Shown piece by piece: positions 1 to 46,000 of a DNA stretch of 64,000 nucleotides. A program made the translations under genes and the position numbers. The DNA is from Rozella allomycis CSF55. Its lineage: Eukaryota. The stretch covers positions 1 to 64,000 of the forward strand of contig KE561096.1 in NCBI GenBank assembly GCA_000442015.1. Reading direction: 5' to 3'. Every line of letters begins with the position of its first letter. The first letter of the stretch is position 1. The notes under the pieces were generated by a model. The model saw only the letters and a list, made by a program, of their open reading frames with translations. It did not search any database and had not been told where the DNA came from.

Positions 1-40
1 GATGCTTTGTGAAAAATCACGGACATATTTATTTTTTTAA

Positions 41-68
41 TGCGAGCGAAGCGAGTACAACCGCTAGT
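41..68 (+). mobile_element. Possible Helitron-like 3' terminus (subterminal hairpin + CTAG|T)
   Basis: TGCGAGC-GAA-GCGAGTA (41-57) can form a GAA-loop hairpin with tandem G.A pairs. CTAG follows at 64-67, then T, matching the Helitron 3' end layout. The element body would lie upstream of the window. Confidence 0.4.
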
Positions 69-307
69 GACATTATAAACTATGACAAGTCTCGCAGTGC
101 TCGTTAAATCGGACGGGGAGTTAATTAAGAAATAAAAACAAATTTCTTCACAATACAACTATTGTTTATGCTTTTATGAGTAATNATTTTATATTAAACC
201 CGAAACTTTGTAGTGTTGTTTCGTGGTTCTTGTTGGGCCTTCCCAAAAGGTGGGGGTCCGGCATATTCCTTTCTGCCCACCCTTCAGCAATATATGTGAG
301 AACAAAT

Positions 308-478
308 ATGATAAAATTTTTATTGAGATGTCCGTTAAATGTTAATAACTTGAAAATTCCAAAATGTATTAAAATAAGAGATGAAATATGTGATGTTTTG
401 AATTCGACCGTATGTTCATATTGTAAAGAGAAAGGTCATGTGTTGCAAGAATGTAAAAAAATTGGAGTACTGCAATGA
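308..478 (+). pseudogene. Short CCHC zinc-knuckle ORF, probably a retroelement gag/ORF1 remnant
   Basis: CSYCKEKGHVLQEC = CX2CX4HX4C at the end of a 56-aa ORF; no RT nearby. Confidence 0.4.
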
Positions 479-595
479 TTGTAAACGCGTTTTTCGCAAA
501 ACAAAAAAACATGAATTNTATTAATATAAATTAATAAAACATTTAACTTGAACAACTATGAAATTTGATACATTTATTTGTAATCTACTAATCTG

Positions 596-3500
596 TTAGA
601 TAGTGGAGGTAGTTCTAACAAGTTCAATCAAATTGTCATTCTTTTTGGGCAGACCACCGAGATAACCTTTGCTGAGAATGATTGAAAGAGGATACCCCAG
701 ATTTGTAGTTGTTTTCTGAACACTTCAAGAATAAAGTAGATTATTCCTATTCCAAAGGAGGCCAAGATGCAATAAATGCTTACATTGCCTGATCCTATTT
801 ATGTTTAGAGTTGTGAAGGAATACCTAGACCTTCTTGAACGCCGGGAGTCCAAATAATGAAGGAACCAATCAAAGCGCCTACTGGAATGAAATGATGATT
901 AAATACCTATAATGAGATGAAATGATTATTAAATACCTATAATGAGATGAAATGATGATTAAATACCTATTATCTCATAACAATTCTTTCTACTTACCTA
1001 TTATCTCACATTACTTGCTCAATTACCTATCTAAGTTTTATCTTTAATAGTTACCTATGTAAATCACCCATTAATAGTTACCTATGAGAATGCCGTATAG
1101 AGAATATTTATTTTTGAATATAGATTTGGTTAAAGGCAACTCGAATCTCTTTTTGCAGAGATAGAGAGTAAACCATTGCCCAATAATAATGGCAGCAAAG
1201 TAAGCCGCCTGACTTTTATTTAAAATTTGTTTTTGTTGGACTGCATTGAATGACTTTCCATTTGACGTTAGAACTGGAGAATCAGAGTTGAAGTATTTAG
1301 AGCCAAGACCAATGAGATTCCAAACATCTAAACCATCTAAATAGAGAGATAAAAGATAAGAAATGAAACAAGAAAGAGTGATGATTCCACCACCGAATAA
1401 ATAAGACCACAAAAGTAATTCATTGTCGACTAGAACTTCACCTGTTTCATTTCTTTTGAACATTTTGTGTAGAAATGATAATTTTTCAAAAGAAGAATTT
1501 GACATTTTCTCTGTGCATAAAACTTTTCTTGGTGGGAACAACATTAAATCTCCATCTGATGGTTCCCAAGCATAACTCAGTGCAGGCAGCAATTCAGTCC
1601 CTACTAAAGTAGGTATTATACTTGTTACCTAGATCTATAAATAATATTAAAACAGATGACAATGGCAAGGGTATTTGAAAGATAACAAAAAATAGAAAAG
1701 AAGCAGCTTCTGGGAATATATGAGTTAGAGTGTATTTGATAGATTTCTTTAGATTTGAAAATATTAATCTTCCTTGGGCAATGCCAACTACAATTGAAGG
1801 GAAATTATCATCTAACAGAATCATTGCTGCAGCTTCTTTAGAAACATCACTTCCTGTCATATTCATACTAATGCCTAAATCAGCCTTTTTCAACGCTGGG
1901 GCATCATTCACTCCATCTCCACTAACACCTACTATATGTCCTTTCAATACTTTTAAATTTATTTACCTTTTGCTTGACACTTCTCTACAATTAATAGTTT
2001 ATGATGTGGAGCTGTTCTTGCAAACACTATTTCCTTCTTTGATAGGATTATATCCCAATCATTGGCACTCAATGCATCTATTTTATCTCCATGAATCACA
2101 ACTGCATCATATTCACTTTCACTTATCAATTGAATTGGTTTCTTCAATCTATTAGCAGCCATTGCAGCTGTATCACCTTTACATTGCAACTAGTCAGAGT
2201 TTACCTTGTAAGAACTATTACTACTCTTTTACCTAGTAAGAGTTACTACTAATCTGTTACCTTGTAAGAGCCATTACTACTACTCTATTACCTTGTTATA
2301 CCCACTACAACTAGTTTANACCCACTACGACTAGTTTACCTTGTTATGCTCCTTAATATTCTTCTACCTTGTTATACCCACTACAACTAGTTTACCTTGT
2401 CAACGCCTTAATACGCTTATACCTGATAATAATCCAATCTTTCTTGCTATGGCTTCAGCTGTCAATGGATGATCACCTGTAACCATCACAACTTGAATCC
2501 CTCATCTCAAACAATCAAATAATCTACCCGCATTTCTACATGACGTAACTGCTTTTCTAACACCCTTCTTTGGTGGATCCATCAACGCTATCAATCCAAT
2601 AAACGTAAAATTATCAATTGGATAATTCGGTGGTTCATTCACAAACTTGAAATTAACTTCATTGTCTATCAAACATTCTGCAAACGCCAACACTCGTTGC
2701 CCTTGACTAGCAAATGTTTCATACGCTACATTAAACTGCTGTGTATGTTCATTGTTCCATTCTTCTATTTTATCATTTATTTTAATGTATTTGCATTTCT
2801 TTATTATTCTCTCGGGTGCTCCCTTTAAATAGACTGTCAGTTCTCCCTTGTCATGTTTTCTTTTGTGCACAGTCATATGCCATTTATTACTACTATTAAA
2901 CGGTATTTCAAACACCTTTATTATAGATAGTAGACTGCTTTACCTATATAGAGTCATTTAAACTTGTTTACCTATCTCAAGTTATTTAAACTTGTTTACC
3001 TTTATCAACACATTTAAACCTGTTTACCTTGGGGTGTTGACTTTGCAACTCTTCTACTTTCACATGACTCACTGCATATCTCATCAATCCAGTCTCCGTT
3101 GCATCTCCAATAATTCTTCTCTTTTCAATTGGACTAGAATCACTCTCATCAAACCTCGCTTTGGAACACAAACAACTAATTTCTGTCAACTCTTTCAAAT
3201 TGGGAACATTCAACTGAACACTCTTGCCATCCTCTTCATGATACTCCAACTCATTCACTTGATGCACACTCAAATTCAAATAACATCCAACAACACTCAT
3301 CTTATTCTGCGTCAACGTCCCTTTCTTTTCAAAATGATTTAAATTACCAGTCTTATCAGACGCCAACAATGTTATCCCTCCCAACGTCTCCACACCCTGC
3401 AAATCTTTAACAAGAACATTCATCTTGGACATCTTCTTGGCTGCTATAGTCAACAACAACGTAACTGTCGCCGGCAATCCCTGCGGCACAAACGCTACCA

Positions 3501-4585
3501 GAATGCCAATCGCAAACGCAAAGTTAGTTGAGATCGCTTTGGGATTAGTCGCCATCCCAATTATAAAGAATATTATCGCCAGTGTAATGGAAACACCAGC
3601 CATCTTCTTCACAAACAAATCAATTTCTCTAGACATCTGAGACGGCCTCTTCTCTTCCTTGCACGTCATTGACGCTATACTCCCCAACACAGTCGCATCT
3701 CCAGTTCTTATCACTACCCCATACCCCTCGCCATTCACAACCAACGTTCCAAAGAACATCAAGTTACTCGCTTCCAAATAATTGTTATTCCCCTTCAACA
3801 AACTTCTCTCTTGTGGCTCTGACTCTCCAGTCAGCGATGAATTATCAACCTTTCTTTCATTAAACATCATCTTACTTTAATCTCATTACACGATATCAAT
3901 CTAATATCAGCTGGCACCTTGTCTCCAATCTTAACAATCACTACATCCCCAGGCACCAGCGTCTCACTCGCAACCTCAACCATCTTCCCCTCCCTAATCA
4001 CCGTCGAATTACTAGGAATCATATTCTACATCAAACCCAACAAAAATCCCCACCAAAAATGACTCCAAAATACTCTGGCTCTTGTACTCTTGGAAAAACT
4101 CTATAAACGCATTCAACAAGGTCACAACAATCAACACAATCCCCAATATAATCTACCCACAACACAAAAATTTCTTACATTCTCCTGCCCTCCAACCAGA
4201 AAATACAACACAACACTCAATATCCCGGCCACCATCAGCAACACATTAAAAAGACCAGTCAGAAAATGCAGAAATCTCTTCAACAATGAATCCTTTTTAG
4301 GTGGCGTCAATGTGTTCCTGCCATACTGGACCAACAGCTCTTTCGCCTTGTCTTCAGTCAGCCCCTATCTCAATCGCAACACTTTTTTACCTAGATTACT
4401 GGCTAAATGATTAATTACTCTTGATCGAGTCACTGATTCTTCATCAACACTCGTTTGGAACCGATCAGCTACCTCTTTGATCGATAACATGTGTTCATCC
4501 TTTTATGCTTGTGTTGGTTAATTACTATGAAGGGCTTCTTGCTGGCACTCGTATCTGTGCGCTCTAATGGGATTGCTGGATCCAT
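596..4585 (-). CDS. P-type ATPase, P2C (Na+/K+ or H+/K+) alpha subunit; multi-exon
   Basis: [29 protein letters not shown] (split by intron 3321-3347), [41 protein letters not shown]. Start ATG at 4585 (MDPAIPLE); stop at 596-598 after a 29-nt intron (667-695). Confidence 0.95.
879..1081 (-). other. Composite intron: 7 back-to-back GT-AG units
   Basis: Units 879-906, 907-936, 937-966, 967-997, 998-1026, 1027-1054, 1055-1081 (27-31 nt), each GTA...TAG on the - strand. Removal joins ILI-G|ALIGSF. Confidence 0.9.
2177..2422 (-). other. Composite intron: 8 (probably 9) back-to-back GT-AG units
   Basis: Units 2177-2204, 2205-2232, 2233-2260, 2261-2291, 2292-2339 (48 nt, contains N), 2340-2367, 2368-2395, 2396-2422. 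Removal joins IGLLS-G|DTAAM. Confidence 0.9.
2916..3027 (-). other. Composite intron: 4 back-to-back 28-nt GT-AG units
   Basis: 2916-2943, 2944-2971, 2972-2999, 3000-3027. Removal joins [12 protein letters not shown]. Confidence 0.92.
4365..4418 (-). other. Composite intron: 2 back-to-back GT-AG units (26 + 28 nt)
   Basis: 4365-4390 and 4391-4418. Removing both joins VTRSR|GLTEDKA; removing only one shifts the frame. Confidence 0.8.
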
Positions 4586-4814
4586 TGTTAATGTATTGCT
4601 ATGACAGGGGTCGGAAATGGATGGATGGCCTTTTAATGGGTCACAATAAGAGATAAGAAATTAAAAGTGGAAATTAAAATTAAATTCTGTGTTGTAATTA
4701 TGAAAACTTGGAAGGAAGTAAACGGACGACGCTAGTCTTTCAGCCTTAGTAATGCACGTCATTTAGTAATACTATGAAAAGAATAATAAAAAATTAAAAT
4801 ATTAATAATTTGTG

Positions 4815-6351
4815 CTAATTTAATTTCTTCACAACTATTGAATCGCCATAGTTTAAAATGCACTGTTCAATTGAATTTACACATACGTCGACAATACCTA
4901 CACATTTATCGCGGAATAAGAATTCCAAATTGCGATCAAGTATCATTAAAGAATCCTGACAGCAAACATAAATGTTTTCATTCTGCAATACCAAACTTTT
5001 GAATTTGTGATCCAAAGAGAAGCTCTTGTATTCATTAGGCTACAAATAAAAGCTTTATATATTACATCCAGTACATTTTGCTTGATTATCTCATAGGGAG
5101 TAACTATAATCACATGCTTCGATGAAAGGTAATGAATCGATATCGCGATTTTAAACACCTTGGACAATTTCGACTCGATTTGCTCTTTTCTAAAGAATAA
5201 TACTTACTTTTTACCTTGCAATTCATAAGAGAATATATGGCCACCGTCAGTAAGCGTATGAATGATGCTATTCGTTTCATTGAACGAAACCGAAAAGACT
5301 ATTTCGGATCGCGGAATCCTTTACTTTCTAAGTTGAGATTCGTATCGTGATTCTTGTAACAATCTTTTAGTTTATATTGTTTCCTTTTATTAACACGAAA
5401 TAGACATACACCAATTTGACTTGGTTTTCAACCACTTGACACAAGCAAATTTTCCCGCCTCTACACGCACTCAAGATCTTGATGAAAATGCCAATTAAAT
5501 CTTACTTGCGCACCATTCTTTAACCATGCAATCTAATAAAGCATAGTAATTGTCACTTACTTTGATAATCGGCGACTCGTGAGGAAATTCAAGGAATTGT
5601 TTTGACCAATAGTTTGCATTTGGGGCATTTTCTTCAAAGTTGCATAACACAAGATCACCTTTCACTCCTATGCATGATTAATACCTTGCTTGGATCCAAC
5701 AGCAACCTGATGGTGGTTTGTAGGATTTACTGCCATATTTAGAGCATCAATTTGAATCACTAATTGGCTTTTCAAAACTATAGTGTCTCCTCGTATCACG
5801 AAATAAAGGACTAGTCTGTATTGTCCCAAAACTGTTACTTTTTGACATGTTTGAACTTGAAGATTGGTTTGAAATCGCATAGAATTGATAGTTTCCGCAC
5901 CAGCAAATGTAATTTATATAATCTTGAGATTTATAAACCAAATCTTGGTCTTTATCTTCCATTTCTACCTTTCTTTCAGGGAATATCGCGTTAAAGTAGT
6001 CTTTAAATATCGCTTGTCATAATTACTTGAAAAATTCTCTTGTGTCTTTATATTGTCCAGTAATGCATCTGAAAACTTTGACTCTATTTTATCCAGAAAC
6101 TCAATCAAGCTTGATTCATTGTATTCTGCAAATGACAAGGAATCGTTTTGGGAAAATTGGACAGGATCGACTTGTATCTGTAATTATTTGAAATATCAAA
6201 GTACACCAATTGCGCATGGTTGTTCGACTTGGGTAGAATTAGTCGATTGTTTTAGCTCTTCACACTGAATGTATTTTTCCTGCGCATTGATTATACTTTT
6301 GCCATTAGATTTGCGCAATATATGAAAATCCGTCGAGAAGTCTTGAAACAT
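4815..6351 (-). CDS. Hypothetical multi-exon protein, possibly a degenerate WD40/beta-propeller
   Basis: Chain of - strand ORF fragments (5747-5962, 5668-5880, 4946-5167, 4815-5015) with short GT-AG introns; WD-like segment MAVNPTNHHQVAVGSKQG. Boundaries approximate. Confidence 0.45.
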
Positions 6352-6517
6352 TCCCTATTGGCCGAAGCCACCAATCTTCTATGTTCGCTATTATTCGATC
6401 AAGATAAAATGGGAAAAGTCATGCAAGAAATTAGTTTTATTTTGCCCTGATAAGAGCTTTCAGATCAGTGTGACTGCTCTTAATGTAGACATTGGTCAAA
6501 CCATTAACCAAGCCATC

Positions 6518-8632
6518 ATGAATGAAAAGGTTACTTTATCATATACTCTACCTCTACCAAATGAAACTTCATTTCCATGTCTATATAACAATGTTTTGAA
6601 AAAGGATCAGAGTGGAAATTTATGGTGTGGAAGTAGGGATGGAAATCTCTATAACTTGACACAGTAAACTTGCCGAATCTCCGTCATTAGAAATCACGTT
6701 TATTCAAAGCATTCAGAATGGATTAATGATTTTATATTCCTTGATGGGTCCAGTAAAATGGAATTATATTTCAAATTGAGATGTTATTTCATGTTCGTCT
6801 GATACAAGTGTTATAATTTGGAATATTGAAAACCAAACGCCATATGTGTTCTCCAAACATAAAGATTATGTGAAAACTCTGTGTGAATGGAATTCAAGTC
6901 AATTTGTATCCGGAGGATTGGACAAGTCTTGTATGTTGTGGGATGTGGAAACTGAAGATTCAATTATGGCTATTGTGGATACATGTATAACGACCAGTAG
7001 TGGGATATATGCCATGGCATCTTTACCTTTACAATCTTTGATAGCTGTTGGATGCAATACCGAAAATGTAAGCCGTGTATCTTTAACTAGTTGAGGTTAT
7101 TAAACTCTATGATGTCAGATCGGGAAAACATGAATCCAGTCTAAAGGGGCACTCGGATAATATAAAAGATATTTTGATAGTAGATGAATTGGTAAATTCC
7201 TTTGATGATCATTTAAAGATCTTTAGTGCCAGCGCAGATGGGACTATTAGGAAATGGTCTTTGAGTAATCATCGATGCATTGAAACATTTGATCATCACG
7301 AAGATTGTAGTGTTTGGAGATTGAAAGTAGATTCAAAAGGGAATATCTGGTCTAGTGATAGAAATGGTTCCATTTATAGTTTCAGCAGCGCCAATGATGC
7401 CAAACTTCGATTGGAATGTCCTGGAGGTGTTTTAGATGTAATTTTAATCTATTTAGAATAAAAGTTTCTCGTGGATGAAACCGATGGAAAACTTTTAGTT
7501 TCTTCAATGGATCCGGCTATTCGGGCTTACGTAAATTAAATAACAAATTCTTGAAAAGGATCTCGACACAAAAGAAAAGATTTTTGATTATCCAAGTACC
7601 AAAATTTACTATGAAAATAGAAAGGCACTCCAGGTATAACGAAATTCCGATTGCTGAACGATCGACAACACTTGGTGTCGCAAACTGTGGATAGAAAGAG
7701 TCAATACTGGGACATTTTAACAGGACAAGTTTTGCAAGTGAAAGAAAAAGACACAAATTTTGAAGAATATGTAGAGGAAAAACAGATGGACACTTGGTGC
7801 AATAATTGGTGTTCCATTGATATCCGTACAGGGGTAATTATATTGATCTATTATAATCTTTTAGAGATTAAGAATGAAATTAAAAGAAAATTTTTGTTTC
7901 TCATCAGATCTTTATCTTTCCGATGTGAAATATCCAAAGATGCCTGAAGACTCTGATTACCGTGGAAATATCGGTTTGATAATTATTCATTCGCTTCTTT
8001 CTAATTATGTTCAACCATTGAACGTAGAAAGCTCGCCTGCCACTCCTGGAAATTCCAACACTGATTATTTGAGCGACATTGATTATTCTTTTTTCAAACT
8101 ACCTTCATCAACCAAAGTTAGATTCGATTCTGAGCCCGATGGTTATTTAGCCACACATACCTTATATTCTTCTACGATATCCGAAATTTCAAATAGAAAA
8201 GATGATATTTCCCCGATCATGCCGCGATGGATTGAACACGCACTACTTTACGTAAGGGTCTTTATGGTATTTATTAGAATCAAATTCCAATCAAATCAAC
8301 TACCAAAATACCAGTTGAGTTGATCAACTTGACAAATAAAGCGGCAACTCCAGATTCCAATACCAATTTAACAATCCATCCCATGGTCCGTATTCGCAAA
8401 TTAGGAGAATTCTTAAAAAAGGAACTTTGCTTAAAGGAAAACGCAGATGTTAAGTTTTATTTAAATGACGTGGTAAGTTTTTTGATTTTTTTTCTAATAG
8501 CTATTAGATTCAAACATAAACATTGGCACACTGAAGATGATTAAATGGAAAAAGGGCGGAGATATCCCATTGGGATTTTATGTAACCGATCAAAAGAATG
8601 AAATTGATCAAGGGAATGATCACGAAAAATAA
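6518..8632 (+). CDS. WDR48: WD-repeat protein 48 / UAF1 (Duf1)-like deubiquitinase cofactor
   Basis: LSYTLP N-terminal motif, CGSRDG, KHKDYVKTL, SGGLD, GHSDNIK, WCSIDIRTG, NIGLIIIHSLL and C-terminal KWKKGGDI. Confidence 0.75.
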
Positions 8633-8767
8633 ATTATTCACCTACATCTTTTTTATGGGTTTCTTCTTCAAAGTGACACATGTTAGACACCCCGCGAAAA
8701 ATGTCATTTTGTAAATTTCACGAGTCGATTGTTGTAAAGTTTATATTTCGACCCTGGTTCTCAAACA

Positions 8768-9779
8768 ATGCAAGCGGAAGCACCTTCAAGTATGGAGGTG
8801 TTGTACCAACAGGTTCGTGAACATGTCAAAGAAATGAATGGTATTTGGGGAAACGGATTCGACAAATCCTGGAAAGTGGTTTTACTTCCTGATCGGTCCG
8901 ACCCAAGAAAGGAGCCACATGTAACTCTTGTAAGATGGATTAATTTAGAATATGCCGCCAATATTGAATGTCATCGATCTTATGAGAATGGATGAAGAGG
9001 TTGTTGACAAGTATCTTTCCTTGTATAAAGCCAAAGTACCAGAGCACATTAGTAGACATCAAAAATTGATTTTGCTGGCTAATGAGATTGGAGCCTGTGG
9101 TGCATCCTTTCTTTCTGATGTTAACCCAGTGTATCGCTTGTTTGCAATATCCAAAGAACTCTGTCAAGAAATTGTTGCAGAGCAGATTGATTATTTGCCA
9201 TTCTTGAAGTTATTTGCTCCTGATCGTATAGTCGAAGCTGTTCAGAAAAGACACGATCAAAAAAAGGGTTTATCTTCTAAACCACCCTCCAAACCTCCTT
9301 CCAACTATGGCGGTGACAGCAACAAACAAAGTGAAAAGCCAAGGAGAAAGTTCTTGTTTGAAAACGATCAAGAAGAAAACAGATCGAGGAAATCTAGCCA
9401 GGGATCATATGGAAATAGAGGCCAGGAGTTCGGTCAAGGTGACAGTAACAATGAAGGAAGGAGCTATGGAGGTTATTCAAATGGGAATGATTCAAGATCA
9501 TCAAGAAGAGCTTACAGTGTAGGATCTAAAAATAATGAATCTGCTCAAGGAACGTCGTGGAATAATGAACCTTCTCAAGGAACGTCGTGGAACAATGAAC
9601 CTGCTCAAAGCTCTTCATGGAACAATGAACCTTCTCAAAGTAATTCATGGAACAACGAATCTGCTCAAAGTCAGCCCCAACAAAATCAATCTAATCAACA
9701 AGAAGAATCTAGCGGTTGGGGAAAAGAAGATACGTCTGGTTGGCGCGTGTCTAATGAAGCTGATGATTGGGGTTCCTAA
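8768..9779 (+). CDS. Hypothetical protein with low-complexity Trp-repeat C-terminus
   Basis: Exons 8768-8920 and 8949-9779 joined by a 28-nt GT-AG intron; tail has SWNNE x4, SGWG, SGWR, DDWGS. Confidence 0.75.
9531..9671 (+). repeat. 30-nt coding tandem repeat (about 4.7 copies)
   Basis: aataatgaatctgctcaaggaacgtcgtgg-like units at 9531, 9561, 9591, 9621 and 9651 (partial). Confidence 0.9.
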
Positions 9780-9837
9780 ACAATTAAATAAAATACTGCA
9801 GTGATGAAACAATATTTATTTTGTCTACTTGATGTAT

Positions 9838-10475
9838 TTATTCAATAGACTTTCCTACTGATTCACTTTCTTGTGATATTCTCAAGTTCTCCATTAAATG
9901 TGATTCCAATGAAGCGTACAAGTGCGCTGGCGCTTTAAGTTTCTGCCACTCGGCCAGTTTCCCTCTACATTCTTCAAGTTCGATATCCTTCTTTTCTAGT
10001 TCCCCATCCTTCTTATCAACCCTTTCCTTTAATTCTTTAATCTCTTCCGTTTTCTTTTCCAACTCTTTACTAATCCTAGCAAGTTTTTCTTTCAATTCTT
10101 CAAGTTCACATTCCTTTTTATTCATCTCCCCCAATAGATTATGTTCATCAGATCTTTTGTTTTGCTCAGTTGACGTGGCAATTTTTCTTTCAGTGATTAA
10201 ATTTGAAATAGGTGATTCTCTTCTAGTCACCAAAACTAAGGGCATCGCTCCCCCATTTAGACGAGATAGTTGTTCTATTGTCGCATTTTTGGAATTTGGA
10301 TTAGGTACAATAGATACCTCATACTCGCTTGGACTCAGCTTGAATTTTCTTTGATAAATCTTGGAAAGAGATTTGACACAACATCTTGGACTTTTTCATT
10401 CTTTTTGATAATAAATTTGTGTGCAAGCGCTGGTTCTGAATAATAAAATACTATTCCAGTCTCCGTTTTAGTCAT
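9838..10475 (-). CDS. Hypothetical coiled-coil protein
   Basis: ORF 9838-10245 with an E/K/L heptad-rich stretch; an upstream ATG at 10475 can join via a 32-nt GT-AG intron. Confidence 0.55.
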
Positions 10476-10639
10476 CGTAAAGGTAAATAAGGTACGAAAA
10501 AATTAAGGTGGCGGTGTAAATTCCAGTTACAATACTAACCGGCATATATCTCTCTGTCAAAATATATTATACTGAATATAGCAATATTTGATGATTTTAT
10601 GAAATGTACTTTTTAGCTTGGCCAAGCCATCATCAAATC

Positions 10640-12462
10640 ATGAAATGTCCAGTTTGTGACAAACCAAGGACTTTTGAAGCCTTACAATGCCAGCTTTGTA
10701 ACAAATGGTTTTGCTTTTCATGTTTGAATCTACGGAATCCAGTTGATAACCTCATACCATTTTTGTTAAATTATTCATACAGTTGTCATACCTGTCTAAA
10801 TTTGCCTAACAGTGTTTTTCAAACAATACCATCTACATGGAAATTGAAAATATCAGCTGCAGTAGCAAACATTGTGTATTCGAAGAAATCTCACTTTGTC
10901 ACACCACAAGAAATTATTGATTTTACAACATACAATTGGAATATTCTTAGTGGAGAAGACAAGAAACCTTTAAATTTGACAAACAAGATATCAGCTGCTG
11001 GTTTCAGATTGTACAATAGATTACAGGAAGGAAGATATTTCATCCCTGACATTGTATTTCATGAATTGCATCCCGAGTCAACAGAGTGTGCTTTTAGTGA
11101 CAAGGAAGACGAAGAAAACTTAAAATTCACTTATTTAGACTTTTTGCCAGAAACAAAAAAGAAACAGCCAATCGCTTATTCAGTTCCTGCAGACGAAGAG
11201 CTAGAAATTGAAATTGAAGTGGAAATGATAAAAGACCAAGAAGAAGACAATTTGAAACGTAGAAAGTCGACAAGAAAAAGAAAAACAAGGAGTGCAAAAG
11301 AGATTTTGGTGGATAATGAAAATGATGAAAATTCTCTCGCTAGAAAGAAAATTTATCAAAATGCGACGTTGGAAGACTATTTTACTAATCCATTTGCACT
11401 CTGTGTATCCAACGACCATCCCTTTGATAATGATTTATTCATTTACAAGCCTTGCGAAAAAGACCCAGTCCTTTCGTTCATTTATCGTCTAGCATATCCA
11501 GTTGAAGGCCCACACCTTTGCTCTGAACATTCAAGTCCGAATTTGTGCATCGATAAGTTCATTCGTTGTTATGCCCATTCCCCCAATTACAAATATCGTT
11601 CTGTAATGAGTAATTATGGCGTTTCTTCTGGATCATATTACTTTGAAGTTTGGTCTAACGGACTAGGAAATTTCAGATGTGGAGTGGGAAAATATTCAGG
11701 TAGTTTTAATACTTTGAACTCATTTAAGCTTGCTTACAGGCCCCAGTTGGATTTGATGATGTAAGTTACGGATTAAGAGACGTTGATGGCTCTAAGATTC
11801 ATCGATCTGTGAGAACATCATATTCTTCACCAATCAAGGCCAATGATGTAATTGGCATTTTAATGGAATTTGAACAAGGTAATTTTTGACTTAGGCACAT
11901 GATAGATGAACCCATCGATCAATATCGATCAGTTACACAATCAAGAATACCAATCAAGGTTAGGGGTCTTTTCTTTTTTGAAGAAAAAGTCGTGCCTCAA
12001 ACTAAATCAGAAAAAACAAAAAGTCTAAAAATAACATTTTTCTATAATGGGAGATCTGCAGGCGAAGCTTTTAAAGTCGAGGTAGATAAAAATGACGTTT
12101 ATCATGCAATGATATCTGCTTACGGTGGAGCTACCGTTGCCATTAATGCCGGACCTGTTTTTGTTTGCCCTCCTGAGAATGTTCTCTACAAACCATTAAG
12201 TGATGTGTCAACCGACATTCAAATTGATGAAACAATCAACGATATCATTTGCGAATTAGAACATTTAGACTTAATGGAAAAAGAACGCATAAGGAAGGAA
12301 AAAGAAGAAATGGAAGCAATTGAGCGTCAAAAGGCTTTGGAACGAGAAAGGCAACAAGTTCTTAATAATCAATTTTTATATTCCCAGAAATTCGTTTTTA
12401 CGGAACCTCAAAATGTACAACATGATCTAATCAATTTTTCATCTAATTTAATCTATAAATAA
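10640..12462 (+). CDS. ASH2: ASH2/Bre2 COMPASS subunit (PHD-like + SPRY)
   Basis: CPVC...QCQLCNKWF...CHTC N-terminus; SNYGVSSGSYYFEV, PVGFDDVSYGLRDVDGSKIH, ISAYGGATV. Confidence 0.85.
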
Positions 12463-12547
12463 ACTTTTCAGGTGGTATTTTTGTTTCTGAAAGCACATGG
12501 GACTGCGCCACGTCACTTTTTCTTTCAACCGTATTTAAATCTGATTT

Positions 12548-13249
12548 ATGAATAACCTTAATAGATCTCCGATGGATTCCTTATCTACAGCAGCTTTAAC
12601 CCTCAGATCTCAATCTCCAGTTACACAAACCCAAGATTCTGAAAAAGTTGTACTTTGCGCAAACTGTTTTACTGAAAGTACTCCTTTATGGCGGAGAGGG
12701 CTTATGGGCGAGCATTTATGTAAATATTATGCACATCATGTCATCTAGGTAATGCCTGCGGCCTATACGTTAGAAATCACAAGAAGCAGAGACCGATATC
12801 GAGAGCAGATTCGAAACAAAGAAATAGAACTAGAAAGTCTGAGGATGAAAAAATATTTTTAAGCACACCTGATCGTATTTCCCATCTACAGCATCCCCCA
12901 GTCCAGCACCAGCCTAGACCCATTTCCTTTACAAGAAATAGTTTCCAGGATATTTTAGAAGTTGGAGACTGTGTTGTTATAAAAGACTGGTTTGCCCCAG
13001 ATAAAACCTATTTCGTGATGATTAGAGAGGTTTTACCCCCGAATAAAAGTTGCGCAAAATTTACATGGATGCGTTTAAAGGAAACAAGTAAACATAAACC
13101 AGAATTACAGTTGAGGGACACTGACTTTATTTTTGGTATAAATTATTTATAGATTTCTAATAATAGGTCCTGATGACGAGTTATTTATCCCGCTCCATTT
13201 AGTGCTTCGGCTGTTACCTTTTAAAGGACCTATTTACAATTCCCAATAG
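12548..13249 (+). CDS. GATA zinc-finger protein, GATAD1-like
   Basis: CANCFTESTPLWRRG...LC|NACGLY across an intron; C-terminal VGDCVVI...FTW...FIFGPDD segment resembles GATAD1. Confidence 0.8.
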
Positions 13250-13309
13250 ATTTAGAAATATATAGACGAAACTAGAATAACCTTAAATAAAATTTATTCA
13301 CTTTTGTGT

Positions 13310-15562
13310 TTATTTATTTCGACGATCGAATTCTGCTGCTGCTTTGAGAGATCTTCCAATGTTATCCAATTCTTTAACCTTGAAAATACGAACAATGAGA
13401 TTCTTTGAAGAAAATACTTCTTCTAAAACTGACAAGGAAGGATCTTTGGAAGGTAATTTTTGATTGCGAACCCTATCAAATGCGTGACCTCTTTGAATTT
13501 CATTTAGTCGATAGTAAGACATTTTGTACATTAAAGATTCTTTCATCGTCTTTGAAGCAGAATCGCCAACGCTGTACTCACCAGCAGAGTTGTAGAAGTC
13601 TTTCTCTTTCACAAGATTTGGATAAATTCCTTGAGCGATTCTGACCATCCATAGAAATTTGTTAATGTCATCGCCAGAATAGCCAATGAGACCACCGTAG
13701 ATAATCAATACATAATTTACATCATGCTTTCTCATAACTTCGTACGCAGTTTCTTCGTTTGAAGCCAAAACTAAGCCAACAGTCGCAATGTGGGTATTGT
13801 TCCAGGTATTATTGTCAACTAGCGTCGTTCTATTAGAGAAACCAGCAATTTGATATCCATAATCCCACCAAGAAAGAATTCTTGAATCTGGTGGCGTGTT
13901 TTTTCTTAGCCAATAATAAGAATCTCTAAAGTCATCAATAATCACCTGGCGTCCAGATTGATCCCTTGACGCTAAGATTACAGACGGAGAAGAATAAGCA
14001 GAAGAAGTAATATACGTGCAATGTTGAATAAAGAACCATAGAAAATACAAACTAAGTAAATAAACAAGTACAGTGGAAACATAACTGTGGATAGCAGGTG
14101 CATTAGGGGATGTTTTGCTTTCAGAATTTCTGAATCGTTTCTTTTGAGGCTTTGGACTCTCTGCAGTTTCTCTAGAGAACTTTTCTAGAAGATTTGAAAT
14201 CGCTAATGCAGCAGCTACACAAACGACAGGGGTAAGGGTCAAAATCAATCTAACCATAACTCCAGCAAAGTATGACGCTGTAATGGAATACAAAATCACA
14301 AAAATGTGCTCATCTCTCCTTTTGGAGAAACAATAAAATACTCCAGCTGGGAATAAAGTCAATGCCAAATTCATGTCCATGAAAAAGGAACTCCATGTTG
14401 TTGGTTGATGTTCAGATACAGATGCAATGATTGGAATATATTTTTTCGCATAGCCAGTATCCCACAAGGAATAAAATCTTCCAGTAAAGGGCGCAATGAC
14501 CCCTGTCATAGTTAAGCCAATCAAAGTTGCAAACATCAATAAAACAACAGTTGCTACTCCGTAACGAATGAAGGATTTGAATTGATTATCTGTTGTATGA
14601 CTGCGAATAACATTAGCAAATGCAAAAAGTTGAATCAAACCAAACACACCTGTTCATGAATGAAGAATCTCATTACCCAGAGCAGCCATGTGTTCAGATG
14701 TTTTAGTTGGTTGAAAACCGACAAATGGAATTGTCATAGATGCTAATGTCCCCAACACATAAAAAGTAGAATAAGAAATATATATTCTCTCTGAAAACCT
14801 TCCCTGTTTTCAAACCTAAAAAACTTTGTACCATTAATATCAGAACGAATACATGTAAAGGAATCAAATTAGTGATAAAAACATAACCTCCCCATGCAGA
14901 CACCATGTAGTAATAAAACATTGCAGTCATCGCACCATAAAACGCTGAGCCAGTCTTAACAGCCTTTATCCACAAATAGAATGTAAACATTAATAAAAAT
15001 ATCGCAATCCCTTCATTATCGTAAGACCCCGCCACAGATCGAGATATATACCCTATCACAAACCACATTCATTTTATTACCAGGTGCAATACCGATAAAC
15101 AACGCGGCAAATAAACCAGATGTTACTCCTTTTAATTCTTTGGTAAACATAAAAGCAGCAAGAGCTGTAAAACCTGAAAACATCGGTGCGAGAAACACAC
15201 AAATATCTTTTATGTCAACAGGTATTCTAGCAATGTGATTTAGAACATAATAAATTGTTGCTGATGTGAACATAATACCAGGATAAACGCTATCTTAGTT
15301 TCTTTGATCCATGTTACGTTCCACCAACAACCCTTCCTAATGGGTACCATGAACTTTCGTCAAACCAATTCATAAACTCATAAAAGCCATTTTGAACCAA
15401 ATATTTTGTACTTCTAAAATTGAACCAAGGATCAAATTCATGAATAATCGATTCAAACCGAATAACAGAGAAAAGGCGCGTAAAAAATGAAATCAAATAA
15501 ATTAAAAGCAACACTACAACTGCTAGCCATGTTCGGGTTGATTCTTTGGAGAAACCAAACAT
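13310..15562 (-). CDS. STT3: Oligosaccharyltransferase catalytic subunit STT3
   Basis: [33 protein letters not shown] motifs. Start placed at the first in-frame ATG (uncertain). Confidence 0.97.
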
Positions 15563-15607
15563 GTTACCTAACAATCGATGACCAGGGTTCAACGTGCCAA
15601 CTGTGAT

Positions 15608-16791
15608 TTATTGTTTAAAATCAAATTCAGGAATCTTTAACGAGTGCCTATTGATAGGATATGGTTTTTCATTAAAAAATTCATGATCTAACGCATCAGC
15701 TGCTGTTATTCTTTTTTTGGGATTATAAGTCAAAAAGCTCATTAAAAGGTTAACTGTTTCTTCAGTGGCCTCAGGGAACCTAGCTTTAAGCATATTATAC
15801 CTATTTAAAAACAAGATTAATTTTTACGGTTGATCTTTAAATCTTACCAATCTAGAGTACGGCAAGTCAACAATTTCGGGCCAAATTTTCGGATTGGGAC
15901 AACCAAGAACATCAATGTACATGTCTAGTTGAGCTTGTTCAGTCTCTCCAGGAAAGAGTGGGGAGTGCTTCATCCATTCACCCATTACGCAACCTGTTGA
16001 CCTTGAATAACAATTGCATTATAAAGATACCAAAGATCTACAGCCGTAGTATAATCATCTTCACCTAGAATTAACTCTGGCGCTCTGTACCAAAGTGTCA
16101 CAACTTTCGGTGTCATTTTCAGTTTCACATCTGAATAGAGACGAGCAAGACCAAAATCGGCTAAATTATAAATTATGCCCATTTGGTACCGATTTTCAAA
16201 ACACCATCCGTTGTCAAAAGTAAGTTAGACAATTTGATGTCTCTGTGAATTACTTTTCTCTGGTGACAATAATCTAAACCCCTCAAGAGCTGTCTCAAAA
16301 GACATTTTATTTCTCTTAAATTCCATGGCTTTGTAGAGTTGTCCATGATGTATGCAAGGTCATACTCACAGTACTCTAGCACAAGATATATGCTATTCAA
16401 GGGATTTCCAACGACCACATCCTTCACAGAAACTATATTCTCGTGGTTAAGTGAACAAAGCAGCATTATTTCGCGCAAAGATGATAAAGGAACGCCGTCC
16501 GATTCATTGGTCAGTCTAACCATTTTCAATGCCACAAAATAGTCTGTTTCCTTGCCGTCATCATTTTCTGATACTTTTGATTTCTTTTTATCGCGTGCCT
16601 TGTCTTTTGTTAATAGAAATGAACAACTTACACACAATTCCGTATGTTCCTTCACCTATTCTATGGATTTTTTCGTACCTATCTACACTAGAGCAGGTTC
16701 CCATGAATGGCAATTTTATTTCAGTGGGATTTTTATCTAGGAATCCATACAGTTTCACGGGAGCAAGCTCTTCAGCTTCTGAAATTTCCAT
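15608..16791 (-). CDS. CDK10: Cyclin-dependent kinase, CDK10-like
   Basis: GEGTYG, PLSSLRE cyclin-binding helix, [24 protein letters not shown]. Confidence 0.85.
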
Positions 16792-16883
16792 TTAGAAATA
16801 TGCGGGGAAGTTTAGCATTTAAATAAAATATATTAAATTATTGATAAACAATAATTATGTTAATCAATTTAAGATTTTTCTGA

Positions 16884-18499
16884 ATGTCGTCAGATACAGA
16901 GACTGAATCGATTGGGGCTCATTTAGTAGATTTTTCTCAATATGACTCTACTTTTTTCATTCAAAAAATGGATTCAGCCGACATTTTATATCTTCCCCAA
17001 CAAAAAGAAGCAAAAATGGTTGGCCAGTACCTTTTGGGGGATGCAATTGGTGAAGGTTCGTATGGAAAAGTGAAGGAAGGATTCGATTCAGACACATTAC
17101 AAAGAGTGGCAATTAAAATTATGAAGACGAAAAAACTGAGAAAAATTCCAGGGGGAGAGGAGAATGTAAAGAGGTATTGAATTGTTGGTGCATGAATTTT
17201 AGAGAAATATCTCTATTAAAGCGATTAAAGCACAATAATATTGTAAAACTTTTGGAAGTTTTGTATAATGATGAGAAACAGAAAATGTACGTTGTGCTGG
17301 AGTACTGTGCCGGTCAACTTCAAACAATAATTGACAAAGCGCCAGAAAAGAAGCTACCTTTAAGTCAAATACAACAGTAATTTAATTATTTACTTATTAT
17401 AGTTATTTAATACAATTAGTAGAAGGAGTTGGATATCTTCATTCAAAATCTGTCATTCACAGAGGTAACGCAATTGTCACGACTTTATATAGACATTAAA
17501 CCACAGAATTTGTTAATAGCAGTTGATGGCACATTAAAAATATCAGACTTTGGAGTCGCAGATGAATTAGATATGTTCTCCCCTTCTGATATTTGTGGAG
17601 CAAGTGCGGGTAATACATTTGGACCCACATAACAGGTACGCCGGCGTATCAACCACCTGAAATCGCAAGTGGAAAAGATGAATTTAGCGGAACAAAGGTA
17701 GATGTGTGGTCAATTGGAGTGACATTGTAATTTGGTAATTGAAAGCGTATATAGTTATCATATGCTCACAGGCAAGTATCCATTCGAGGGTGAAAATGTT
17801 TATACCTTGTATGAAAATATAGCCAATTCGCCATTAGTAATTCCCACAGAGTTTGATTCCTTAATTACTAGTCTACTGGCTGGGATGCTGAACAAAGATC
17901 CCGATAGTAGAATGAGCATTAACGATCTTGCAAACCATCCGTAAACAGATAAATACCCGCTAATTTTTCAGTTGGCTAAGAATAACAATACCAAAATCAT
18001 TAAACGAGATTCCTATTTACAACGCCTGTGTTTACAAATCATCAGACTTTTTAAACTCAGAATCCGTCATTTCAGATACAACGGTTATCCCATACTTACG
18101 GAAAATATTCCCTGACATGAAGAGTGCAGTTGAAAAACCAACTTTAGCTGTTATACCTGATATGAACGAAGACGATACAAATGGTGAATACACACTAACC
18201 ACTTCTGAATCAAAAGATGAAAGGCTGCATTCTGGAATACTATCCTATGAATCAATAGCTGTTTCAAAAAGAAGTAAAGTAACGTTAATATTACATAAAT
18301 TAAACAGTCAAATCATTCATTACGGAAGTTGCGATCCCTAGAAAAGCAACCGCCAGAAGATCATTTAAAACTTGACATATCAAAGAATAAAAGTAGGCCA
18401 TCTTCTGGATATTGGTCATTCACAGCTTCAAAGTCCCCATCAATTGCATCACCGGAATTCGAAAAGTCAAAAACAACTGATAAATGCAAAATACAATAA
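16884..18499 (+). CDS. STK11: LKB1/STK11 serine/threonine kinase
   Basis: [72 protein letters not shown]; ends in CaaX motif CKIQ*. Confidence 0.9.
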
Positions 18500-18540
18500 A
18501 TAATAATAGATTTAATTTTAATAAGATTTAGATGTTTTTA

Positions 18541-19943
18541 TTAGTCTCTTTTAGTATTATCAATTAATGCAGGTGTTATGAACTGCGACAGATCTATCCC
18601 TTTCTCGATTAATGCTGCTTCTGCGTGTGTTGGAATTATTTTTTTATTTAATGATGGCTTTAAAGCAAGTTCTTTGATATGAAAGTTGTAAGGTTACCCT
18701 GTGTTGTGAAGTCAAACAATGGCGGCAAATCTTTCCCGTTAGCTAGTTTTGTTTCTGGTAGGCGTAATGGGTCAAAAAATGGATGTGCCAAAGCTTCAAC
18801 TGGAGATATTCTGGCTGTAGGAATGTATTGTAATAATTGAGAAATCAAATCTAAACATTCTTCACTAACTGTTTTGTTTTGAAAGACTCTTGACCATGGA
18901 TTAGCCTTAATTTGAGGGAACTTGAATTCAGTGTAATGCTGATTCATTGCGTGAATCTGTTCTTTGGTTGGAGTGCCCAGCACTTTTATTATTTCTACAA
19001 GTTGATCAACGCCAGATTCACCGGGGAAAATAGGCCTGCCCAAAATTAATTCCGCCATGACGCATCCTGTTGACCATAAATCTTTTTCTTTAAGTATCTT
19101 AGATAGTACCTATTGATGTTGTATAATCGGTTGCCCCAAATATCAACTCTGGGGCTCTATAATAGCGGGAGCAAATATACGACACGTTTGGTTCGCCAGC
19201 GACCAATATCTTAGCACAATTGAAAAATAAAATCATCTTTTACCTTCCAAAATCGCATAATTTAAGGATTCCGGTAGTTGGATCTAGCAAAAGGTTTTGT
19301 GGTTTAATATCTACTTTTAATACGTTTCAATTAGTACCTCTATGACAAATTCCTAGCGAATGGATGTAAGCTAATGATCTAAACAATTGGTACATATAAA
19401 GCTATAAATACAATGCAGATTGCTATTCTACCTGTATTTGTAAGACTGGCATATTCTGTTTGCTCTTTGAATAGTGCCTGCTGGCTCTATAAACTGTTTC
19501 CGGCACAAATTCTAAAACTAAATTTAAATAAACATCTTCTGTCTGATTTAATTTATACTTTTCAATGATTACTTTTTCGTCGTTTGTATAAAAGAATTCC
19601 TTTAGCGACACAATATTCGGATGTGAAACTAATCGCATTATTTGAAGCTCTCGATTCAATGGTTACAACAAAATCTATTAATTACCTTGAATCTCTTGTC
19701 CTGTAAAACTTTTTTTACAGCAATAACTTCATTAGTGGGTACAACTTTGGCTTGAAATACGACACCAAAGGATCCATTGCCAATTATCTTGGCGTTTGTG
19801 TAGCTGAAATCATGCGCTTCACCGGTTTTGCCATTATTAGCTGTAACAGTCACAATTTTTGCTGGATCAAGTTCTATGAATTGAATATAATAGAATTATT
19901 TACCAAGTTTTATGCCATTTATCGTCGTTGGTTTTGAAGTCAT
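18541..19943 (-). CDS. GSK3: Glycogen synthase kinase 3
   Basis: [65 protein letters not shown]. Confidence 0.97.
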
Positions 19944-20088
19944 AAGCGGGGTAGCTGGGCAAACTTCAGCAGGTAATTGTAAACAAAACAAATTGTAAAT
20001 TGGATCCACAACTAAGAAATTTTATAAAGGTCTAAAAGGCGCCAAAAGCAATAATATTTGTAAATAATGGGATAAATTTTAATAATAA

Positions 20089-43050: not shown

Positions 43051-46000
43051 ATGTCGTTTCTATCTAGAATAGAAGAGATAGACTATGGCAAGCAACTGGA
43101 GGATGTGTCATTTGTGTTAAGAATAAAAGAAGCGCGAAATTTGTACCCGAAAGATGAAAACATAACGAGCGATCCATACTGTACGATAGAGATTGGCGGC
43201 CAATTCTGGCACACGCGTGTAGTGTATAGCGAGTTGAATCCTCGCTGGAACGAAGAGATAGTATTTCCATTTGAGAATTTCACCAAGAATGTTGTGATTA
43301 ATGTGTGGGACAAGGATGATAAAAAGTTTGAGGCGAGTGATCTATTCAAGGCTCGGTATTGGCGGGATGAGAGGGATCAGTTTCTGGGGCGGTGTGAGGT
43401 GAAGATTATGAATTTGATACCCATGTTGATTAGAAGGGGTGAGAATGGGGGGATTGAATTTGCAGCTGTGGAGAGATGGGTGCCTTTGGAGAAGAGATCA
43501 AAGAGGAGCCGTGTTTCTGGGGAGATTAAGATTGAGATTTGTATTGTTTGTGATAAGCTTGTAAGAATGATTTTGTCAAAGAATAGAGTGTGATATTCGA
43601 AAGGGTTAAAATGGGGGTTAGAGTAGAAAGGGAGAGAAGTGATAAAGTTAGAGTTGAACATTTTGATAATCAATGCAATAAAATCTCCAATAAAATCTCA
43701 CATCAGACTTATGGTGAAGTAAACGTACTGCTGACTGTGTTGATTAATAAAATTTTAGAGAGAGAAGATAATTTGCTGGGGGTTGTAGAGATTAGATACA
43801 TTTTGATAGAATTATGTTTGAGATGGAGAATATCGTTTGGATCTTTTAAATTAAAGTAAAAATAAAAATAGATTGAAAAAAAGATTAATTTCAGAGATTG
43901 TGAAGAGAGAAAATTTCATGTTGAATCATGCGAGTCAAGTGTTGTATGAATTGACAACCCTTGAAAGATATTTAAAGAAAGATTCATTTAAAGTAGAGAA
44001 TTTAAACTATTATTTTTGATAGATGAGAAAATTTGAATTTAATTTGGAGATTCTTTGTGAGAATTATTTAAAGTTTGTAAAGAATTACAAGGATTGTTTT
44101 CCATTCAACACGCCAATTGGAGAATTAGACGCGAGTGTTTCTATTTTGCTTTTTATAGAGAAAATCAAAGGGAGGGTGATTAAAGAAGTTGAGGGTAAAA
44201 GGGTTAAAGGAGGGAGAGTGGGGAGAGTGGGGAAGCATCATAAAGAAAACTACATGAATGATACTAATCCTTTTCAAACAACTAATCCCTTTCAATCAAC
44301 TAACTCCTTTCAACCCCCTCAACTTCAACCCCCTCAACTTAAACCTATTCACCTTCCAATTCAAATTGCTTTAAAGGAAGGATTGTTGATGAGATCAATG
44401 AAGTTGAATGAACTTTGCCATCCATTAAAGAAAAATGATTTATTGAAATGTTTAATGTTGACTGAAATTTTGATTAAAGAATTAGATCAAGACATTAATC
44501 TATATTCAAGATCTTTCCCCTTGTAAATAAAATAATAAAATTTAATAAAAGAGAAATAAAAATGATTGAAATTGCAATTCAATCTTATTGGATGATTTTG
44601 TCTCTTGAATATGAAAATTTATTACATTCTTTGGATGAAAAATCTATTTCTCATCTAATCTTTAAAATATTTTTAAAAGCAAATGAATTTCTATCTAAAT
44701 CTAGTGAATTTTATTTGTAAATTATATTATTTGAATTTAAAGAATTTCATTCAATGTTGAAGAATGGTTTAATCCAATTCTAAACAAATGGTTGAATTAT
44801 CTCCAAAATGAATTAAACCGCTGGACCATCAACGCGTGTGAGGAGAGAAAGAAGGGTGAGACAGGGAAGGGAGAGACAGGGAAGGGTGAGAGTAGTAAGG
44901 GTGAGACAGGGAAGGGAGAGACAGGGAAGGGTAAGGGAGAGAGTAGTAAGGGAGAGAGGTGTAAGGGAGAGAGGTGTAAGGGAGAGAGGTGTAAGGGTGA
45001 AGGTATAAATAGAACTAGGTGTTAATTATAATACTGTTACTACCGCTACTCATACTGCTGCTGATACTAATCATACTAAATACTTTAATGAAATAGTTCC
45101 AGTTGAATCACTTCAATTGGTGGTGGATATGTTTGCTGCTTATAAACAAGTACATTCAATCTCTTTATAATAAAAAAGATGTTTGATTTGTTGAATGGCG
45201 TTTACATTAAATGGGAAAATAAATTGGATTTCTTTAACACAAAATTTACAAAATATTTGCAAGTAAATCTATTCAAATCTATTAAAAAAGATGGTTCATC
45301 AATCTTTAAATTTATTAATCAAAAATCAATTAAAAGAAATTGATGAAAGTTTAACAAGGGTTGACACCAATCTATTTACAAGGGTTGACACCAATCTATT
45401 TACAAGGGTTGATAATAAAGATCTAATCTACAAATCAAACAAAAATGTAAACATTTCATCTTTCAGTAAAAGTATTTAGATTCAATTATGCTCTTAAATG
45501 AAATTTATTCAAAATATCACGAATTTTACAATCTATTCCCTAAAGATCAATCTACACAAAATTCAATTTTTTTTTCTTTAAAGTTTTCAAATTTTAAAGA
45601 AATCAATCCCAGAAAATTTCCAATCTATTTAATCATTGAAACTGAAGGAGGGAAAGCAAAGAAAGAGTTAGAGAAAGAGAAAGAGAAATGTATTCCAAGT
45701 GAAAGTATTTATAGAACACACTGCTTAAATAATTCTTTAGATGAATTTAGTTTAATTGTTGATAAATCTCATTGTCAATCGTTAACTTTAAAACTCGTAG
45801 AAAAATGGAATTCAAAACCAATCGAAATTGGAAAACTCTTTTTAAATGAATTAAAACAAGGGAATTCAACTTTAACATTCAAAAATCATCTTTCTTTCAA
45901 TCTAAATGTTACACAACCACCTCTAATAAATCAATTGCAAGTTTTATCAAATTCTTTTCTTCACTCCCTAAATTCTAAAATTCTAGATCTATTCGATTCA

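Follow-up and report, generated by a model that had tools for sequence, protein, structure and literature searches.

Recursive splicing through zero-nucleotide exons ('ratchet points') is known from long introns of Drosophila and vertebrates. Zhuo et al. in 2007 (PNAS) reportedly described human introns that arose from tandem arrays whose units carry splice sites and allow alternative donor-acceptor pairs; these arrays are said to be exonic or untranslated and to create new, alternatively used introns. Under Rogers' model, tandem duplication of a segment bounded by AG|GT is said to yield a spliceable GT...AG piece and to leave the coding sequence unharmed. Intron gain by tandem duplication of an AGGT segment is treated in the available portions of PMC2891723, PMC7138796, and PMC13685798. 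The accessible text of PMC7138796 also describes stwintrons, complex fungal intervening sequences removed by consecutive standard splicing reactions, for which duplication of part of an intron is proposed as the origin, and reports abutting donors in Lipomyces starkeyi at which one or two reactions are possible. Ultra-short introns of approximately 25-30 nucleotides (nt) with a narrow length distribution are reported for Paramecium, other ciliates, microsporidia, and dicyemids (excerpts of PMC8997360, PMC5014332, and PMC13644364). In the excerpt of PMC13644364 (2026) the lineages with introns below 30 bp are ciliates, microsporidia, and dicyemids, and Rozella is not listed; that of PMC8042348 gives 29 bp as the lowest fungal median intron length and leaves the species unnamed. 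Here we describe a 64,000-nt window of the Rozella allomycis CSF55 genome (assembly GCA_000442015.1, contig KE561096.1, positions 1 to 64,000; all coordinates refer to this window) in which four introns of a P-type ATPase gene are built from stacks of ultra-short, directly abutting intron units.

The ATPase gene (628-4585) lies on the minus strand and runs from an ATG at 4585 to a stop codon ending at 628, with 14 exons and 13 intron sites. This model has 1032 codons plus the stop and includes an extra upstream exon and intron taken from the public annotation; counted from an ATG at 4490, with the short GT..AG pieces taken out, the frame gives 1009 residues. Nine of the 13 intron sites hold one intron of 26-30 nt, and the other four hold 2, 4, 8, and 7 units. 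These are stack D (4365-4418, phase 0, units of 28 and 26 nt), stack C (2916-3027, phase 0, four units of 28 nt), stack B (2177-2422, phase 1, eight units of 27, 28, 28, 48, 31, 28, 28, and 28 nt), and stack A (879-1081, phase 1, seven units of 27, 28, 29, 31, 30, 30, and 28 nt). All are on the minus strand and were delimited by tiling and reading frame, with additional support from Tandem Repeats Finder (TRF) for A, B, and C; units are numbered in the order of the lengths given. An earlier reading of the letters by a model (the first-pass annotation) had claimed that four introns tile exactly into 21 units (7+8+4+2), and retiling confirmed this: lengths of 54, 112, 246, and 203 nt are filled with zero leftover bases. 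All 21 units start with GTA and end with AG, and consequently all 17 inner junctions read AG|GTA, as had also been stated. Twenty units are 26-31 nt long; the remaining one is 48 nt long and contains an N at 2319. The same annotation had given 879-4418 as the extent of the stacks, which holds, but the gene itself starts upstream, at the ATG at 4585, with a thirteenth intron site at 4525-4500.

The outer limits of the stacks are fixed because the reading frame and an alignment with six full-length fungal homologues constrain them. Around every stack junction the spliced ATPase aligns gap-free with these homologues within 10 residues, and the 74 residues beyond stack A, at the C-terminus, likewise align, matching the membrane region at the C-terminal end of these proteins. 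In stack D the frames join only when both units go, not one alone. The outer borders read AG|GT on both sides of stacks B and C and AG|G at stack A, and stack D has neither. Frame and alignment together show that each array must be removed completely from the mRNA. Exon 5 (167 residues) matches solved structures of the non-gastric H/K ATPase (K-transporting ATPase alpha 2) and of Na/K-ATPase alpha subunits (E = 5.9e-37), with Ca-ATPases scoring no better than 1e-20. Its closest match, at 100% identity, is 'ROZALSC1DRAFT_16731, partial [Rozella allomycis CSF55]', the remaining matches among 1548 reaching at most 68%, and EPZ32895.1 (Rozella allomycis CSF55) sits in the same 90% cluster as that protein. 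The phosphorylation motif DKTGT becomes contiguous in the alignment after excision of the intron at 3347-3321. The predicted product is a P2C-type ATPase (Na/K- or H/K-ATPase alpha-like), the class to which the gene had previously been assigned.

We interpret each stack as a copy-number-variable minisatellite whose unit is a complete ultra-short spliceosomal intron and which would be removed by several short splicing events, a reading to which we give a probability of roughly 60%. Its likeness to recursive splicing lies in the AG|GTA acceptor-donor sequences inside the intron and in an mRNA that would keep no trace of them; to judge by sequence, joining the exon to the following unit would recreate exon|GTA, as every unit starts with GTA. 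It differs in that the Rozella pieces measure 26-31 nt instead of kilobases, with stepwise removal as a proposed rather than an observed step, and in that the sites would arise via tandem copying of a whole intron, in an early-diverging fungal parasite. Since each unit carries its own donor and acceptor to begin with, the order of removal need not be 5' to 3'. In contrast to the human tandem-array introns, the Rozella arrays multiply a pre-existing, obligatory ultra-short intron, and the whole array must go. Rogers' model duplicates exon sequence and gives one new intron at a new position, whereas in Rozella the intron itself appears to be duplicated, repeatedly and at the same position. Stwintrons are nested, with an inner intron that interrupts a signal of the outer one and an inside-out order of removal, whereas up to eight Rozella units abut with uninterrupted signals, and a test for nesting was negative in that no unit lies inside the end signals of another. 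The first-pass annotation had likewise set nested stwintrons apart from tandem stacks, in agreement with the portion of PMC7138796 available. The ultra-short-intron lineages share the intron length with Rozella, and tandem arrays are unmentioned in the retrieved excerpts on them. No description of tandem ultra-short intron arrays was found in the excerpts returned by a full-text literature search. As far as this partial text extends, the arrays resemble known recursive splicing and intron gain by tandem duplication, and their tandem ultra-short form appears to be new. Metagenomes scanned with an aligned set of 12 ATPases gave 592 matched stretches, 573 of which encode relatives, and 80 loci were retained; the best segment is only 52% identical, and there is therefore no close relative for a comparison of intron sites.

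We surveyed intron lengths in the window using GTA..AG candidates that link two open frames of at least 35 codons each. At lengths of 26, 27, 28, and 29 nt there are 29, 14, 26, and 16 frame-joining candidates, and every other length from 18 to 54 nt has 12 or fewer. This peak at 26-29 nt bears out the earlier claim that the units match the ordinary introns of the window in size, and the stack units read as ordinary R. allomycis introns in both length and ends. Ends and a length in the intron range are found together in 20 of the 21 units; the frame demands removal of whole stacks and says nothing about individual units. Chains of such units were compared with dinucleotide-preserving shuffles of the window (n = 200). 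Chains of at least four units occurred in 0/200 shuffles and chains of three in five, and there are nine two-unit chains in the window versus a mean of 2.7 per shuffle. None of the eight two-unit chains in the window outside the ATPase gene requires both units to be removed: in seven, the frames join no worse when a single unit is taken out than when both are, and in the eighth nothing joins. Within the 64-kb window, stacks are confined to the ATPase gene. The idea of a splicing 'system', also put forward earlier, gains no support here: within the window the stacks are limited to a single gene, without any sign of a dedicated function.

The stacks were also characterised as repeats. TRF reports a period of 30 in stack A (2.8 copies, 96% matches), a period of 28 in stack C (3.2 copies, 84% matches), and two arrays of period 28 in stack B, along with a period of 20 inside the 48-nt unit, which is a copy of B2 preceded by a 20-nt tandem duplicate of its own start. 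Similarity between units was measured on interiors only, with the ends stripped, and the null was obtained from 630 comparisons against 30 introns that belong to other genes. Among unit pairs within stacks, 13 of 56 exceed the 99th percentile of this null (0.70), and the units fall into the families A5-A6-A7, A3-A4, A1-A2 (weak), B2-B4, B1-B3, B5-B6-B7, and C1-C2-C3 (C4 weak). Interior identity is 96% between A5 and A6, 100% between B2 and B4, and 74-83% among C units 1-3. Similarity was not detectable between D1 and D2 (p = 0.74) or between B8 and B7 (p = 0.56), and D1, D2, and B8 resemble nothing in this comparison. Several unit pairs share a block at one end and are unlike at the other, as expected if new units are chimeras of their neighbours. 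Head-to-tail repeats of 10-100 nt, as in minisatellites, are present in A, B, and C, while stack D is without repeat similarity, and the locus occurs with different unit numbers (5 versus 7 units in A; 6 versus 8 in B). The stacks are ordinary tandem-repeat DNA that gains and loses copies in register, a point that the first-pass annotation had missed.

Evidence for copy-number change comes from Logan contigs of the DNA runs X1, X4, and X6 (three samples and studies), which were placed on window positions 1-20000 together with those of the RNA run X9. In stack A, units A1 and A2 (55 nt, 1027-1081, minus strand) are missing from one DNA form of two runs. The joint 1022->1078 skips these 55 nt at a depth of 245 in X1 and 124 in X4; eight letters fit both sides of the joint, and, shifted by 4, the skipped piece ends in CT..AC on the plus strand. 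The deletion is bounded by two occurrences of the 8-nt junction word ATAGGTAA, and after it the exon abuts A3. This five-unit form is the less abundant DNA form, in two of the three DNA runs, and the omission of a single base at 955/956, seen at depths of 245.1 (X1) and 124 (X4), is probably on the same contig. In stack B, 78 nt (2242-2319, minus strand) are missing from a DNA form of all three DNA runs, through the joint 2241->2320 (no shared letters; depth 415 in X1, 308 in X4, and 1803 in X6). The loss brings the first 20 nt of B4 up against the final 9 nt of B6, which together form a single GT..AG unit of 29 nt, and the commoner DNA form of stack B has six units of 27-29 nt and lacks the 48-nt unit. 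The 48-nt unit with its N, singled out in the first-pass annotation, is therefore present in the window, but contigs of all three DNA runs give a 29-nt unit instead. Linked changes at 2214 and 2215 account for 444/636 of the depth in X1, 297/434 in X4, and 2854/2854 in X6. Because the joined forms are present in DNA runs, they are DNA variants and not products of splicing, and the variants of A and B could be different alleles or stem from a second copy of this gene region.

The same contigs bear on whether the stacks are assembly artefacts, which we regard as scarcely credible. The N at 2319, inside stack B, coincides exactly with the joint 2241->2320, where contigs of the three runs join differently, and contigs also break at the Ns at 185 and 518; in stack B the window may show the rarer copy or an imperfect join. 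The near-identical units A5-A7 are moreover uncountable with 31-letter words. These points are outweighed by the coverage of the remaining units and by the gene itself: stack D lies without a difference inside one contig each of the independent runs X1 and X4, an X6 contig (966-2245) spans units A1-A4, B7, and B8 with four letters differing, and frame and homology demand precise excision of every stack.

Two further observations come from the contigs. A joint 1921->2571, which skips 649 nt (three intron sites and two exons), is found at a depth of 278 in X1 and 302 in X4, on one contig per run with 36 letters on the shorter side; together with the raised depth of this region (see below), it makes a second, rearranged copy of part of the ATPase gene possible. 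Outside the gene, clusters of differences at 5110-5158, 5731-5867, and 9764-9886 lie on contigs that make up approximately a third of the depth there, in X1 as well as in X4. This points to two forms of the sequence in a ratio of approximately 2:1 and hence to something other than a simple haploid clone.

A tandem repeat that changes copy number in register is also what one would see if each stack were a single long intron containing a repeat, excised in one step that uses its outermost GT and AG and none of the inner sites. The inner sites would then persist through the youth of some copies and through repeat turnover that regenerates them. We consider this unlikely, although it is a serious contender. 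The near-identical copies A5/A6 and B2/B4 fit it, as does the presence of a 48-nt unit in the window form of stack B, and so do the public annotations, in which stacks B, C, and D are single introns of 246, 112, and 54 nt (stack B is taken out as one 246-nt intron in EPZ32895.1, and stack C is a single intron in both annotations). It fits less well with the pattern of change within units. In MAFFT alignments of eight unit families, 0 of 40 end columns (GTA, AG) vary, compared with 67 of 192 interior columns (35%; Fisher one-sided P = 2.5e-7, in a test conditioned on the units being delimited by their ends), in line with the earlier observation that interiors diverge and ends and length are kept. 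Given this conditioning, what can fairly be said is that loss of an inner GT or AG should produce a tile of approximately 56 nt, and none was seen; with a third of the family columns varying inside, 0 of 17 junctions are broken. Units that are no longer alike (D1 and D2, B8 and B7) still keep their GTA..AG ends and their length. One-step removal would also skip up to seven good acceptors, contrary to the general knowledge that a donor takes the nearest one, and a fold bridging the stack ends that might stabilise such a long intron was not found in stack A (z = 0.67) or stack C (z = -0.25). Kept junctions with varying interiors are what selection on every junction would predict.

Several considerations count against removal of the units one at a time and against selection on every junction, beginning with the conditioning of the test above. 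In-register repeat turnover and recent duplication could preserve the junctions without selection; turnover and the youth of some copies weaken the selection argument without removing it. Two of the eight families in the junction test (D1/D2 and A1/A2) consist of units that are barely or not alike. An AG|GT donor with an AG|G acceptor also occurs at three single introns of the ATPase gene, which did not multiply. The 48-nt unit of the window form, if functional, would mean that introns well above 31 nt can be removed, and for long introns outside the stacks, three surveys of the window that joined open reading frames were swamped by chance candidates. That three stacks are single long introns in public models belongs here too. 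The depth over 668-2668 is 1.3-2.5 times that of neighbouring sequence, and the copy-number variants may therefore represent a second gene copy and not alleles.

Removal unit by unit from a copy-number-variable minisatellite would work as follows. An ordinary intron of approximately 28 nt would first be copied in tandem via slippage or unequal exchange, with the AG|GTAA word at every unit boundary usable as microhomology. Once two copies are present, a gain or loss of approximately one period, in any phase, would give another well-formed GT...AG unit, such that the array could grow, shrink, and form chimeras in register; because copy-number change is in register, the exact tiling is partly explained by mutation alone. 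The spliceosome of short introns works by intron definition, in which a donor pairs with the nearest acceptor. As each unit has its own donor, its own acceptor, and a normal length, removal is most likely to proceed in short steps, as successive ordinary splicing events of approximately 28 nt. After each removal an intact AG|GTA junction or exon|GTA donor would remain, as in recursive splicing, and since any in-register donor-acceptor pair would leave a valid shorter array, all paths would reach the same mRNA. A unit that lost a splice site would leave a piece that is too long or unspliceable, and selection would thereby keep the junctions while the interiors drift. We think that the arrays are neutral or slightly harmful passengers and that no function beyond being tolerated is needed to explain them. 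The interpretation given in the first-pass annotation is partly supported, in that the stacks must go completely, the units resemble ordinary introns in length and ends, and the junctions persist despite varying interiors; removal one unit at a time stays a proposal. No RNA run was listed among those that contain the ATPase gene. On window positions 1-20000, contigs of the RNA run X9 gave one 50-nt piece (13830-13870) and none on the ATPase gene. A search for a branch-site motif with constant spacing to the acceptor gave position tables without a clear signal, against an impure comparison set of 40 introns.

A bolder proposal, which we put forward tentatively and at somewhat less than even odds, is that the Rozella spliceosome is confined to introns of approximately 30 nt. 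A multiplied intron would then persist only in the form of a chain of whole units removed singly via zero-length exons, the number of introns per site would be a fast-mutating heritable variable, and exchange at AG|GTAA would copy or delete whole introns precisely.

The units could instead be independent insertions of mobile micro-introns at AG|GT, either introner-like or through reverse splicing and reverse transcription. Certain adjacent units are indeed unrelated, and 10 of 154 cross-stack pairs and 6 of 189 pairs of a unit with a single intron lie above the 99th percentile of the null. The closest of these pairs joins C2 with the single intron at 1601-1628 (p approximately 8e-4 by shuffling), which is not significant after correction for approximately 343 comparisons, and relatedness of units across stacks or to the single introns of the gene, though suggestive, was likewise not significant once corrected. 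Interior identity to the 30 introns of other genes in this window tops out at 0.70, the local unit families and TRF arrays indicate tandem duplication, and the variants consist of a deletion at junction microhomology and a fused unit rather than repeated insertion of one shared element. An origin by such insertions is accordingly very unlikely. The intron at 1601-1628 itself has an interior identity of 0.70-0.78 to units of three stacks (C2, C3, B6, and A2), a resemblance that hints at possible exchange between intron sites of the ATPase gene.

Nor do we favour a functional role, in which the number of units sets a splicing delay or lowers the yield of mature mRNA and copy number thereby adjusts how much ATPase is made. 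As this proposal would have it, the four stacks of the window share one gene, at four of its 13 intron sites, and their copy number varies. It is nonetheless very improbable given interiors without conservation, the missing fold in stacks A and C, and the lack of any RNA family match; clustering in one gene can also be explained by a locally unstable region, and a high-copy repeat adjoins the gene. Searches of the window for RNA families (Rfam) and tRNAs found none.

The high-copy repeat occupies positions 1-667, next to the 3' end of the ATPase gene, with a summed contig depth of 22,299 in X1 compared with approximately 300 elsewhere, many loose ends at 33, 68, 85, and 122, and no tRNA or Rfam matches. 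Other tandem repeats in the window include one at 9534-9670 (period 30, 4.6 copies) inside a plus-strand open frame and G-rich arrays of period 15 at 44851-45008. The exons of the ATPase gene have a guanine-cytosine (GC) skew of 0.29-0.57 over the 5' two thirds of the gene (2500-4400), with G exceeding C on the coding strand, and a skew of approximately 0 in the 3' exons; a comparable skew of +0.43 is found at 42-44 kb.

The nine single introns of the ATPase gene, all on the minus strand, are located at 4500-4525 (26 nt; the thirteenth site, from the public annotation), 4153-4178 (26 nt), 4026-4053 (28 nt, with a GTG start), 3850-3875 (26 nt), 3321-3347 (27 nt), 2501-2527 (27 nt), 1941-1966 (26 nt), 1601-1628 (28 nt), and 795-824 (30 nt); all but the first were placed by frame and homologue alignment. 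The intron at 3321-3347 lies within the DKTGT motif and is in frame and stop-free. Both public models, RKP17122.1 and EPZ32895.1, treat it as coding, which puts nine residues within the catalytic DKTGT, a motif that is unbroken in all six fungal homologues. EPZ32895.1 also runs into stack A and terminates there, lacking the two final exons (74 residues). Tandem acceptors with a spacing of 3 nt are present on the minus strand both in the last unit of stack A, where a second possible acceptor lies 3 nt upstream (CAG|TAG, 879-881), and in the single intron at 1601-1628, which has an alternative acceptor 3 nt upstream (TAG|TAG, 1601-1603). Either acceptor stays in frame at both sites, with a difference of one residue.

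In practice, the stacks are mishandled by gene predictors: one public model terminates in stack A, and the DKTGT intron is retained in both. If the units are spliced separately, the stacks would be a natural case of recursive splicing beyond the animals, on the smallest scale possible. They would also make it easy to probe by experiment how long an intron an ultra-short-intron spliceosome can remove at most. A step in which introns are copied or deleted precisely at AG|GT is for the most part only deduced in models of intron gain and loss, and here it is seen within one species. If the spliceosome of Rozella is indeed limited to introns of approximately 30 nt, the arrays would provide a direct, observable route of intron gain and exact loss.

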